From assembly GCA_000092065.1 (NCBI GenBank), contig CP000589.1: 64,000 nt of DNA, one strand, 5' to 3'. The position numbers and the translations under genes were made by a program. This DNA comes from Ostreococcus lucimarinus. Its lineage: Eukaryota. Position 1 is the first letter of the stretch. Each line of letters starts with the position of its first letter. The notes beneath the pieces are model-generated. The model searched no databases and was not told the DNA's origin. It saw only the letters and a list, made by a program, of their open reading frames with translations. This document shows, piece by piece, positions 5,738 to 37,055 of this stretch.

Positions 5738-6349
5738 ATGCCGACGACGCCGACGACGCAAACATCGCGCGTCGCGCCGCGCGCGCGCGCGCCGCGAACC
5801 GCGAGCGCGCGCGCGAACGCGCGAACGACGCGCGCGCGCGCGGGGAAGCTCGTCGGCGAGAGCTGGGTCGAACTGAGCGACGCGTCGTACGCCATCGAAA
5901 ACGGACGCGAACTGTACGCCGCGGGTGACGTCGCGTCGGCGCTCAAAGAGTTCGAACGCGCGCTGACGCTGCCGGGAAGCGGCACGAAACGCGATCGCGC
6001 GAAACCGGCGGAGCTGTCGAACGGCGAGCGACAGGCGGCGCTGTATAACATCGCGAGCGCGCGGTGCGCGTTGGACGACCGGAGCGGCGCGCTCGAGGCG
6101 CTGGACGGATGTTTCAGAGCGGGGTACGCGAACCCGCGCGCGTACGGCGCGGCGAGAGGGATGCGAGATTTGGACGCGATGTGGGCGGACGAGGACTTGA
6201 CGCTCGCGACGCGCACGGATGAGTTTCGGGCGATGGTGAAAAAGTACAAGGTGACGCCGAACGCGATGGCGTTGCAGTTCGATTTCAACAACTCCATCAT
6301 CGGCGGCGTCGTGGGCGCGGTGAGCGACAAGATGACGCCGAAAAAGTAA
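5738..6349 (+). CDS. Small TPR-like helical-repeat protein, hypothetical
   Basis: The listed ORF 5348..6349 overlaps the 5' end of the opposite-strand gene. The first ATG clear of that overlap is 5738 (MPTTPTTQTSRVAPRARAP...), followed by TPR-like helices. GC3 is high. Confidence 0.4.
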   Translation: MPTTPTTQTSRVAPRARAPRTASARANARTTRARAGKLVGESWVELSDASYAIENGRELYAAGDVASALKEFERALTLPGSGTKRDRAKPAELSNGERQAALYNIASARCALDDRSGALEALDGCFRAGYANPRAYGAARGMRDLDAMWADEDLTLATRTDEFRAMVKKYKVTPNAMALQFDFNNSIIGGVVGAVSDKMTPKK

Positions 6350-33367: not shown

Positions 33368-33550
33368 TCGCGTGTGTATCAAAACCATTCCAGCACATGC
33401 ACCTGTTGGAGACAATGTCTAATAGACCGCCTCGGGAACGCGGACGTCTCGCAGGAAAAAGCCAGACTTTTGATTCGGCGCGTAGCGTAGCGTATCGCGT
33501 AAGAATGATGATGTACATGTAACAACAGATGTAAAACTAAGGTGAATGTT

Positions 33551-34651
33551 TCAAAAGAATCGATCGTTCGTGGCGTTGAACTCGATTCGCAGGCGCGGCC
33601 GACCGCGCGGTCCCGTTCGACGACTCGGTTCGCTTTGCGCTTCTCGAGAGACGGGCAAGGACAGCACGGGATATTGCGTGATGAATCGCACGACTTGGTG
33701 TAATGGGTGCGTAAGCGAGACGAGCGCGCTGAGCGGGCCGCTGCACAACCCCAGAAGCGCGCGTCCGACGCCCGCGATGGGCTCGGCGATTCGCGGCGCC
33801 ATTTCGGGCTCCGCCGTCACCGCCGCGGACGCCATGAGATCGATCCCAATCTCGCTCAATCCCGCACCGAGGTACAAAAACACAAACAAACTGTGCGTCC
33901 ACTCGCACGCGTGGCTAAAAGTCGCGAGCGAGCGGAAGAACCGATTCCCCTTTCTGATCTCTCGGTTGGCCCAAATCCGCGCCTCGTTCGCCGACACCAC
34001 GGGCACCAACTGCCTCGGCCTCGTCAGCGTCTCCGCGTCGTCCCCCCCGAGCACCGTATTCAACACCGTTCGCAGCGCGAACTTCGCGTACTGCTCCACG
34101 CGATCGTGCGCGCACGGCGAGAACCACTGCGCCAGCCTCGCCGCCGCCGGCGCCTTGGCCAACGCGAACGTCTCCCCGCACACCCGACACGCGTTCTCCT
34201 CCACGCCGTGCGTGCGCAGCGACACGCGCTGCCACCGCCTGAGACAGTGCACGTGTACGAACGCCGCCGTTCCCGCGCACGCGCACGGGCTCACGAGATC
34301 GCCGCGCGGCTCGAAGCAAAATCGACAACTCGGCCGCGCGGCTTCGTCGCCGTCCTCGTCGCCGTCGTCCTCCTCGTCCTCCATCGCCGTCGTCGCCGCC
34401 GTCTTCGCGCTCGCGCGCGCGCTCGACGTTCGTCGACGTCCCTCCGCGCTCGCGAACCACCGTCTCGCGCGCGCGTCGTCGTCGCCGTCGTCGTCGTCGT
34501 CGCCGTCGCGAATTCTGTCGAGCGCGCGCTCGTCAACCTCGAGCGCGAGCGCGAGCGCGTCCCGCGCGCGCCGCGACGCCGCGGCGCGCTCGCGATCGGC
34601 GCGCGCCTTGACCGCGCACGCCGCGCACGCGACGAGCGCGAGCGGGAGCAT
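33551..34651 (-). CDS. RING-CH (RINGv/MARCH-type C4HC3) zinc-finger membrane protein, likely E3 ubiquitin ligase
   Basis: The RING-CH spacing is seen in CRFCFEPRGDLVSPCACAGTAAFVHVHCLRRWQRVSLRTHGVEENACRVCGETF. Signal-like N-terminus and a C-terminal TM segment. Confidence 0.7.
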   Translation of the reverse strand: MLPLALVACAACAVKARADRERAAASRRARDALALALEVDERALDRIRDGDDDDDGDDDARARRWFASAEGRRRTSSARASAKTAATTAMEDEEDDGDEDGDEAARPSCRFCFEPRGDLVSPCACAGTAAFVHVHCLRRWQRVSLRTHGVEENACRVCGETFALAKAPAAARLAQWFSPCAHDRVEQYAKFALRTVLNTVLGGDDAETLTRPRQLVPVVSANEARIWANREIRKGNRFFRSLATFSHACEWTHSLFVFLYLGAGLSEIGIDLMASAAVTAEPEMAPRIAEPIAGVGRALLGLCSGPLSALVSLTHPLHQVVRFITQYPVLSLPVSREAQSEPSRRTGPRGRPRLRIEFNATNDRFF

Positions 34652-34668
34652 GGCGCGCGCGAGTCGGT

Positions 34669-34694
34669 GCCGTCACACGTCGACGTGTGACGGC
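34669..34694. promoter_or_regulatory. Perfect 26-bp palindrome GCCGTCACACGTCGACGTGTGACGGC at the RING-CH / small Cys-rich gene head-to-head junction
   Basis: It is its own reverse complement and is centred on GTCGAC. It lies 18 nt from the RING-CH ATG and between the two candidate ATGs of the divergent small gene. Confidence 0.6.
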
Positions 34695-34721
34695 ACGCGC
34701 GCGCGCGGCGCTCGCCGCGCG

Positions 34722-35230
34722 ATGCGGCGACGACGGCGCTCGCGCGCGCGCGCGCGCGCGGTGGTCATCGCGTGCGTCGTCGCCGCGCTGTGCGCGGGGT
34801 GCGAGGTGCGCGCGCGACGCCGCGGGCGCGCGAAGGCGACGTCGCGAACATCGTTGACGCGACGACGAACGACTGACGACGACGACGCGACGACGGGGGC
34901 TCGCGACGCGCGCAGGGCGCGAGCGGGAATAAAAAACGACGGCAGCGCGCGCACCGCGCGAATTCGCTCGATCGAGAGCTGTCGGTGAAGCGGGAGGCGT
35001 GCGCGGCGAGCGCGCGCGCGGAGCGGCCCGAGTGCGACGACGGGGACGACGCGTCGGTGATGGAGAATTGCGTGTTGAGGTGCGCGAGCGCGAGTTGTTA
35101 CGACGAAGTGTACGGACGCGATGCGCTGGAGGAGGGAGAGGTGGACACGGAGCGTGGACGGGCGTTTCGGTCGTGCGCGAGGGAGGAGTTGAGGCGGTTG
35201 CGCGGGTATCAGACGTTCGGGACGGAGTGA
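34722..35230 (+). CDS. Small Cys-rich protein with N-terminal signal-like segment; two exons 34722..34805 and 34916..35230 (alternative ATG 34650)
   Basis: Exon 1 encodes MRRRRRSRARARAVVIACVVAALCAGCE. The 110-nt intron has donor GAG|GTGCGCGCGCG, branch CGACTGACGACG and acceptor CGCGCAG. Exon 2 (GASGNKKRRQ...REACAASARAERPECDDGDDASVMENCVLRCASASCYDEVYG...SCAREELRRLRGYQTFGTE*) has high GC3. Phase 0 on both sides. Confidence 0.5.
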
Positions 35231-35349
35231 CGCGACGACGGCCGTTTCGCGACGCGCGCGTTCGCGCCGTCGCGCGCGCGAACGCGCGCGTAGTCGTAGA
35301 CGTAGTGTAGTGAAGTGAATTAAAATTAGACAGCGGCGCGTGAACAAAT

Positions 35350-36012
35350 CTACTTTTCCTCAACCGCCGACGACTCGTCGCCGACGACGTCCGCCTCACC
35401 CGCGAACACCCCCTTCTGCGCGTACACCACCGCCATGAGCAGCACATCCGCCGAAAACACCCCCGCAAACGATTTCCACACGAACGGAATCAACACGTTC
35501 ACCAACGGCATCGCCACAAACAACAAATTCAACGCGTCCTTTTCCTTGGCGTCGCAGTCCCGCGCCCGCAGGCTCGGCACCGTAAACATCCACAAGCTCC
35601 ACATCCCCATCAACCGCGCGATCGACGGTTCATCCGACGGATATATCACATTAAACGCCAACAATCCACCGACGATGACGGCCAGATACGCCTGTACCTC
35701 GAACACCGTGTACAAAACGCTTCCCTTGTACGCCGGGTTCTTCTTCTTCTTCGCCTCCCCCGACGAGCTCGGCGCGAACGTCGTCGCCGTCTTCTTGACG
35801 AACTTGCTCAGATTGCGCTCGAGTTCGGCGTCGGTGATGCTCTTCGTTTTATCGTCGTCCGTGTCCGTCGTCGCGCGCGTCGTCGTCGTCGTCGCGCGTT
35901 CGACGCGCGCGAGGTGCGTCGTCGTCGTCGTCGTCATCGCGCGTCTGTTTCGCGCGCGCGCGCTCGCGGGCGCACCGCGCGCGACGCCGAGGCGCGCACC
36001 GATCGTCATCAT
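35350..36012 (-). CDS. Small membrane protein (two TM helices), hypothetical, presequence-bearing
   Basis: 220 aa from the MM start at 36007-36012. Arg/Ala/Thr-rich presequence, then ...VLYTVFEVQAYLAVIVGGLLAFNVIYPSDEPSIARLMGMWSLWMFTVPSLRARDC...LLFVAMPLVNVLIPFVWKSF... Confidence 0.45.
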   Translation of the reverse strand: MMTIGARLGVARGAPASARARNRRAMTTTTTTHLARVERATTTTTRATTDTDDDKTKSITDAELERNLSKFVKKTATTFAPSSSGEAKKKKNPAYKGSVLYTVFEVQAYLAVIVGGLLAFNVIYPSDEPSIARLMGMWSLWMFTVPSLRARDCDAKEKDALNLLFVAMPLVNVLIPFVWKSFAGVFSADVLLMAVVYAQKGVFAGEADVVGDESSAVEEK

Positions 36013-36515
36013 CGCGCGCGACGTTCGCGCGCCGTTCGCGCGGCGTCGTGTGCGGCGCGGCGCGCGTCGATCGCGTCGGTGGATAACATTGGCGCCGCGC
36101 GCGAGTGTCAAATCTCTCGACGTCGCGACGACGCGCGGCACACGCGCGCGCGGCGACGCCGAGCGCGCGCGCCAACGGCGAGGATGGTGCGCGCGAACGA
36201 TGCGCGTCGAACGGCGCGCGCGATGCGCGCTCGCGACGCGCGCGCGCGCGCGGCGGGAGATGATTGCGTCGAACGAACGAATGCGCGACGACGCGTTCGA
36301 CGCGCTGACGACGACGCGATGAGGGACTGACGACGGCGCGAACGCGCGAACGCGCGCAGAGTTCGTTCGTGAAAGCGGGGTCGTACGACCCGACGCTCGT
36401 GGACGTGGAGCTGACGGCGGAGGAGGCGAAGACGCGGGCCAACCGCCGGGACGCGTTTCGGGAGCACCTGCGCGCGACGCTCGCGGAGAAGGAGCTCGTG
36501 GGGGCGTTCGCGAAG

Positions 36516-37055
36516 ATGTATAGGATGAATGAGAAACCGAAGGATCCGTTACAGTGGTTGCTGGATTACTTTGAACGCGATCAGAGGGAGCATATACGAC
36601 GCGCGGAGGAGACGGCGGAGACGTATCGCTCAGAGTTGCTGAGAGCGGAACAAGAGCGGGATTCGTTGATCGCGAAGATGGAAGTGATGCGGCAAAAGGT
36701 GAGCAATTTGGAGCGCACGGTGCAGGAGCTTCGCGACGGAGGGCGCAAGCACGTCGTGGGAGTGTACGGTGGGGAGGAGATGCCCACGGGGGCCGACGCA
36801 CCCGCGCCCGCCGAAAAGGAGAACGACAAAAAGGAGAAGAAGGAGAAGAAAGAGAAGAAGGAGAAGAAGGAGAAGAAAGAGAAGAAAGAGAAGAAGGAAA
36901 AGGAGAGCGCGGCGAGGCCTCCATCCGATGATGAGTTTTTCGGCAACTCGAAGGAAACCTTCGGGTCGATGAAAATGAAGACGACTCCCGATATGTTCGA
37001 CGACAGCGACAGCTCAAGCCTACCGAAACAACAATCTCTTCGCGATCAAGTGTAA
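36516..37055 (+). CDS. RIIa/DPY-30-like dimerisation-motif coiled-coil protein with (KEKKE)n repeat
   Basis: PKDPLQWLLDYFERDQREHIRR is a DPY-30/RIIa-like motif, followed by a coiled coil and KEKKEKKEKKEKKEKKEKKEKKEK. The listed ORF opens on GTG at 36369. An ATG-only first exon at 36184 plus a 173-nt intron is possible. Confidence 0.5.
   Translation: MYRMNEKPKDPLQWLLDYFERDQREHIRRAEETAETYRSELLRAEQERDSLIAKMEVMRQKVSNLERTVQELRDGGRKHVVGVYGGEEMPTGADAPAPAEKENDKKEKKEKKEKKEKKEKKEKKEKKEKESAARPPSDDEFFGNSKETFGSMKMKTTPDMFDDSDSSSLPKQQSLRDQV
36829..36900 (+). repeat. Hexanucleotide-based AAGGAG/AAGAAG tandem repeat encoding (KEKKE)n
   Basis: aaggagaagaaggagaagaaagagaagaaggagaagaaggagaagaaagagaagaaagagaagaag. 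Confidence 0.85.

Follow-up and report, generated by a model that had tools for sequence, protein, structure and literature searches.

A predicted two-exon gene for a small, cysteine-rich DUF4787 protein in Ostreococcus lucimarinus

Results

Gene structure and splicing signals

A short plus-strand gene lies between two minus-strand genes in a compact, GC-rich (55–70%) stretch of Ostreococcus lucimarinus DNA, 64,000 nucleotides long and hereafter called the window. The flanking genes encode a RING-variant (RINGv) protein and a predicted membrane protein, which matches the placement given in the earlier note on this DNA. The gene model comprises two coding exons separated by a single putative intron, and the joined product is 132 residues long (Table 1).

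Table 1. Coordinates of the predicted gene and its surroundings in the window.
Feature	Position	Strand	Description
RING-variant (RINGv, PF12906) protein	33551..34651	-	366 aa; upstream divergent neighbour
Spacer between the start codons of the divergently oriented RINGv and DUF4787 genes	34652..34721	.	70 nt
Exon 1, coding part	34722..34805	+	84 nt, 28 codons, MRRRRRSRARARAVVIACVVAALCAGCE; ends in phase 0
Spliceosomal intron (putative)	34806..34915	+	110 nt, phase 0, 75% GC
Exon 2, coding part	34916..35230	+	104 codons + TGA; GASGNKKRRQRAHRANSLDREL...GYQTFGTE; basic linker and whole Cys-rich domain
DUF4787 (PF16029) domain	34970..35176	+	residues 47-115 of the joined protein
3' region before the convergent neighbour's stop codon	35231..35349	+	119-nt gap
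Predicted membrane protein	35350..36012	-	220 aa, without Pfam family; downstream convergent neighbour

The two coding pieces occupy different reading frames, as had been described: exon 1 takes the frame of the open reading frame 33546..34988, and exon 2 that of 34985..35230, since the intron length (mod 3 = 2) is no multiple of three. Exon 1 reads ATG (34722) CGG CGA ... TGC GAG and then continues into GTGCGCG. The frame of exon 2 is open after a TGA at 34874–34876, and its first ATG occurs only at 35062, inside the DUF4787 domain; for lack of a usable ATG in this frame, an upstream exon is needed. Exon 2 also shows the coding-like third-position GC attributed to it earlier, with GC contents of 0.66/0.55/0.82 by codon position compared to 0.68/0.55/0.83 in the neighbouring RINGv gene.

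Specifically, the intron is delimited by the donor GAG/GTGCGCG at 34805/34806 (GTGCGCG, 34806–34812) and by the acceptor CGCGCAG/G at 34915/34916 (CGCGCAG, 34909–34915), the latter being the first AG past a branch point GACTGACG at 34871–34878, whose A lies 39 nt from the last intron base. Their description as textbook signals of a 110-nt intron is justified by agreement with the published Ostreococcus consensus. Among O. lucimarinus introns confirmed by ESTs, those outside chromosome 2 carry the 5′ splice site GTGCGTG, and the median intron length of this species is 111 nt, while ACTGAC is present in 87%, and GACTGACG in 66.5%, of non-chromosome-2 Ostreococcus introns (Irimia and Roy 2008, PMC2483917). 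Compared to these introns, the window intron has an exact branch-point motif, a length close to the median and a donor with one mismatch to GTGCGTG (6/7). The branch-point motif occurs at seven sites in the window versus 3.9 expected, which is not significant alone, and it is informative only in combination with donor and acceptor. The whole arrangement was evaluated against 20,000 first-order Markov versions of the 309-nt upstream region, generated with local dinucleotide statistics. None of the 20,000 versions combined a hydrophobic exon beginning with ATG with a GTGCG donor in phase, a branch point of the form ACTRAC and an acceptor in frame, and four of the 20,000 did so when any GT/AG was allowed. 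An Rfam scan of both strands from 34400 to 35500 gave no match, and thus no sign that the intron conceals a structured RNA.

The same donor, branch-point and acceptor signals recur in further candidate introns of the window. One of them would define a first exon consisting of the start codon only (36184–36359, plus strand; ATG/GTGCGCGC ... GGGACTGACGAC ... GCGCGCAG/AGT), in which a 173-nt intron straight after the ATG leads into the open reading frame 36360..37055 (SSFVKAGSYDPTLVDVELT..., with a KEKK repeat). A matching arrangement, ATG/GTGCGCG...GACTGACG...CAG/AGCTCG, is found in O. tauri (L007, 4243–4402), where the annotated model (276 aa over 898 nt) seems different.

Comparison with related algae

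A search with the joined protein recovered the O. tauri protein XP_022839652.1 within a matched cluster. On best-hit similarity, gene order and intron position taken together, the window gene is the ortholog of this O. tauri gene. The O. tauri protein (also CEF99110.1, an "unnamed product" of 129 aa; GCA_000214015.2, CAID01000009.2) is ~70% identical over the domain, and exon 2 is 64–70% identical to its orthologs generally. Its N-terminus, MARPSARSRRRSMAVIALALVLARTGA-APGHRKRRERALRTSSLDREL, is built like that of the joined product, with a basic stretch after a signal-like segment, although the signal-peptide sequences of the two proteins cannot be aligned residue by residue. Homologs of the joined protein begin two to four residues before a conserved S/A-L-D-R-E-L.

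The O. tauri gene has one annotated intron in the same place. Its 129 residues extend across 502 nt, so that the annotated intron is 112 nt long. The order of genes is also that of the window, namely FtsH, RMI2, RINGv (minus), the DUF4787 gene (plus) and the membrane protein (minus). The annotated junction in O. tauri falls 6 nt upstream of the canonical GAG/GT, which yields 129 rather than 131 residues; the protein there reads ...TGA/APGH, equivalent to a GC-AG intron, and the exact donor in O. tauri is therefore ambiguous. The gene was unannotated, as the earlier note had put it, only with respect to the collections searched, whereas its O. tauri ortholog is annotated, intron included.

Seven taxa were compared (the window, O. 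tauri as L007, and the loci L008, L011, L013, L015 and L018), in each of which the gene stands beside a divergent RINGv gene. In all seven, an ATG opens a first exon that is basic and then hydrophobic and whose phase-0 end adjoins GTGCG (or GTTCG, in the case of O. tauri); the intron that follows measures 96–174 nt, and its YAG acceptor keeps the frame of a basic K/R segment and of the domain. Six of them have a branch-like motif (CTGAC, CTAAC or CTGAA) 11–39 nt upstream of the acceptor, and the spliced products, of 126–138 residues, can be aligned end to end. The intron contains stop codons or a frameshift in five taxa, where translation from the ATG would arrive at the domain only after splicing. 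In the remaining taxa nothing in the intron interrupts the reading frame, and metagenome callers read through it, giving "proteins" of 161–182 residues with an odd insert between signal peptide and domain.

In a Micromonas-like sequence from a polished long-read assembly (L017, 3080–3100), the donor region reads GCGGGTGCGT and not GCGGAGGTGCGT, and the phase of exon 1 is ambiguous; between close variants of L017 the putative intron varies by frameshifts, in keeping with non-coding DNA.

Exact matches were also sought. The exon 1–exon 2 junction DNA of the window gene, and that of the more abundant L008 species, gave no matches in a collection of metagenome contigs that is perhaps free of transcripts. 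When the exact spliced proteins of the seven taxa, two SNP variants and a long-start version were compared with a collection of 15 billion proteins, only that of O. tauri was found. Overall, the exons, the DUF4787 domain and the Mamiellales orthologs agree in supporting the two-exon gene that had been proposed, and from these comparisons of sequence we infer, with a probability of about 0.85, a nuclear gene whose transcript would be spliced in vivo.

The encoded DUF4787 protein

The joined protein matches PF16029 with 62.2 bits, compared to a gathering threshold of 27, and over the full profile (positions 1–63 of 63). The 132-residue product is thus a regular member of the near pan-eukaryotic DUF4787 family, with an ortholog already annotated in O. 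tauri. An exhaustive HMMER search returned 1,074 clusters at 50% identity, the best 150 of which are mostly stand-alone proteins of ~100–150 residues. A profile search gave ~80 named or unnamed relatives; the named ones, all labelled uncharacterised, come from liverworts, mosses, a lycophyte, Ginkgo, the red alga Porphyridium, beetles, a psyllid, gastropods and a crinoid. Full-length homologs of 104–138 residues were available from Pterosperma (a transcriptome), Marchantia, mosses, Ginkgo, Porphyridium, insects, molluscs and a crinoid, and every one that we inspected consists of an N-terminal signal peptide, a short basic linker and the domain. Set against this family pattern of a stand-alone protein of ~105–140 residues with an N-terminal signal peptide, only the spliced 132-residue model of the window gene fits. 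Searches with the protein produced nothing significant in NCBIfam and, among PDB chains compared by sequence, only chance matches to cytochrome c3 (E about 0.2). No studied member of the family was found in the literature searched (PF16029, IPR031985, LEEGEVD).

The position of the single Mamiellales intron, near the signal-peptide boundary, differs from the arrangement in Marchantia and the crinoid, whose genes have several introns, and no sharing of its position with either gene could be demonstrated. Marchantia (L019) and the crinoid Anneissia (L020) share an intron just before LEEGEVD, which is probably an ancient position and is missing from the Mamiellales genes.

The signal peptide was judged from its n-, h- and c-regions and from hydropathy. 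Exon 1 encodes an Arg-rich n-region (MRRRRRSRARAR) and an h-region (AVVIACVVAALCA) with a hydrophobic core of 13–15 residues (maximum Kyte–Doolittle 11-residue mean, 3.23), followed by a c-region of small residues, GCEGASG. The combination of these three parts identifies exon 1 as a predicted cleavable signal peptide, in keeping with the signal-like N-terminus noted earlier and with the signal peptides of all full-length family members inspected. Alternatively, the exon 1 peptide may serve as a signal anchor or in organellar targeting. The window protein, which ends in ...GYQTFGTE, carries no C-terminal KDEL or HDEL.

Nine cysteines are present in the joined product, three in exon 1 and six in the mature part, rather than the seven or eight first counted. 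Across an alignment of 46 sequences, C57, C68, C84, C89 and C115 are invariant and C80 is conserved in at least 90%; the motif LEEGEVD (L99–D105) is invariant as well. Of the two roles that had been suggested for the cysteines, disulfide bonding is favoured because six conserved cysteines follow the predicted signal peptide, whereas metal binding finds no support. The product is accordingly read, from its sequence features, as a probable secretory, disulfide-bonded protein. An AlphaFold2 model of the mature part, built with the 46-sequence alignment, is confident and helical (pLDDT 84.7, pTM 0.70), with helices at 5–36, 46–57, 59–66 and 78–101, and places LEEGEVD in the loop between helices 3 and 4, ahead of the last helix.

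Alternative gene models

Other boundaries for the same gene and intron are improbable, even though each has some basis in the sequence. An ATG at 34650, in frame with that at 34722, would extend the protein to 156 residues. However, it overlaps the RINGv start codon, so that its use needs a transcript starting inside the RINGv gene, and the n-regions of the orthologs are short. Similarly, a CAG at 34943–34945 is in frame, and an acceptor at 34945/34946 would skip GASGNKKRRQ; against this choice, the first AG past the branch point is at 34914–34915, and the basic stretch K/R-K/R-R-R that would be removed is conserved in all orthologs. The annotated O. tauri protein implies a donor 6 nt before GAG/GT, but GAG/GTGCG aligns across taxa. 

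As predicted for annotation from open reading frames only, prokaryote-style callers applied to metagenome contigs from the same organism lose the 132-residue product. Some calls retain an 81-residue, GTG-started tail that still matches PF16029, and an intronless gene beginning at this GTG (34985), or at ATG 35062 to give 56 residues, would encode a cytosolic protein without a signal peptide. Such a gene is very unlikely, given that GTG initiation is unexpected in a eukaryotic nuclear gene, that ATG 35062 drops the first two conserved cysteines and a third of the domain, that conservation reaches upstream of both starts across NSLDREL and the basic stretch, and that the protein would lack the signal peptide borne by all inspected full-length members of the family. 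Other calls (L001, L003 and L004) select a 224-residue antisense reading frame (34673..35347) without family. A true gene on the minus strand with a spurious plus-strand reading, be it this frame or the 311-residue frame 34533..35468, has a negligible probability: the 224-residue frame has no Pfam match on record and no NCBIfam match, long antisense frames are expected at 69% GC, and it is the plus strand that carries a significant, deeply conserved domain. Finally, the gene might be a decaying or silent copy that keeps its structure and makes no protein. The window and five of six strain variants agree, whereas L005 (a 663-kb contig), at about 5895–5915 (about 34740 in the window), contains one additional CG unit in the exon 1 (CG)n microsatellite, which would frameshift the signal peptide. 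An indel error is more likely here than a natural null allele, and with the reading frame, all six cysteines and LEEGEVD intact, and codon-position GC resembling that of a gene, a silent copy is highly improbable. The two-exon model with the boundaries of Table 1 is therefore retained.

Flanking DNA

The RINGv and DUF4787 genes are paired head to head in all seven loci considered (the window, L007, L008, L011, L013, L015 and L017/L018), which extend from Ostreococcus-like contigs to Mamiellales-like ones at a greater distance, and the start codons of the pair are 31–98 nt apart where measured (the window, L007, L008 and L011). In the window, the spacer presumably comprises a bidirectional promoter and the 5′ UTRs of both genes. 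Inside it lies a perfect 30-nt palindrome (34667–34696, GTGCCGTCACACGTC/GACGTGTGACGGCAC) with two ACGT cores, which is found nowhere else in the window, is unchanged across six strain variants and does not occur in the O. tauri or L008 spacers; it may be a bidirectional-promoter element or a transcription-factor site. On the other side of the gene, the gap before the convergent neighbour contains a perfect 16-nt inverted repeat (35252–35267 and 35276–35291, ACGCGCGCGTTCGCGC / GCGCGAACGCGCGCGT) with an 8-nt loop. Between the RINGv and RMI2 genes, the strain variant L001 (7179–11744) has an inserted open reading frame of 1,521 residues without a Pfam match, which is missing from the window and from L002–L006.

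Discussion

The features of the locus suggest a pathway for expression of the small protein. Transcription would start from the very short bidirectional region common to the RINGv gene, and the intron would be removed by means of the strong, lineage-specific signals GTGCGYG and GACTGACG. The peptide encoded by exon 1 would act as a cleavable signal peptide that directs the chain to the ER, with cleavage expected near the exon junction, around AGC/EG. The mature part of ~100 residues may then fold into a small bundle of helices, stabilised by three disulfides between the six conserved cysteines, giving a soluble luminal or secreted mini-protein in which the acidic loop LEEGEVD is the likely interaction surface.

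For the O. lucimarinus genome and for gene catalogues derived from metagenomes, the two-exon model is a sound annotation correction, with no concept changed. The locus also adds a clean, comparatively supported case of the unusually strict splice signals of Ostreococcus, and it illustrates how small intron-containing genes of compact, GC-rich picoeukaryotes are lost or truncated by prokaryotic gene finders on metagenome contigs. In addition, DUF4787 is flagged as a widespread signal-peptide family for which no published characterisation was found in the literature searched. It is a speculative and rather unlikely proposition that DUF4787 is an ancient, near pan-eukaryotic, ER-luminal or secreted, disulfide-bonded helical mini-protein, and that its head-to-head arrangement in Mamiellales reflects co-regulation with a membrane RING-CH (RINGv) E3 ligase that acts in the same endomembrane process. 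If this were true, a compact alga would offer a tractable system for assigning a function to DUF4787.
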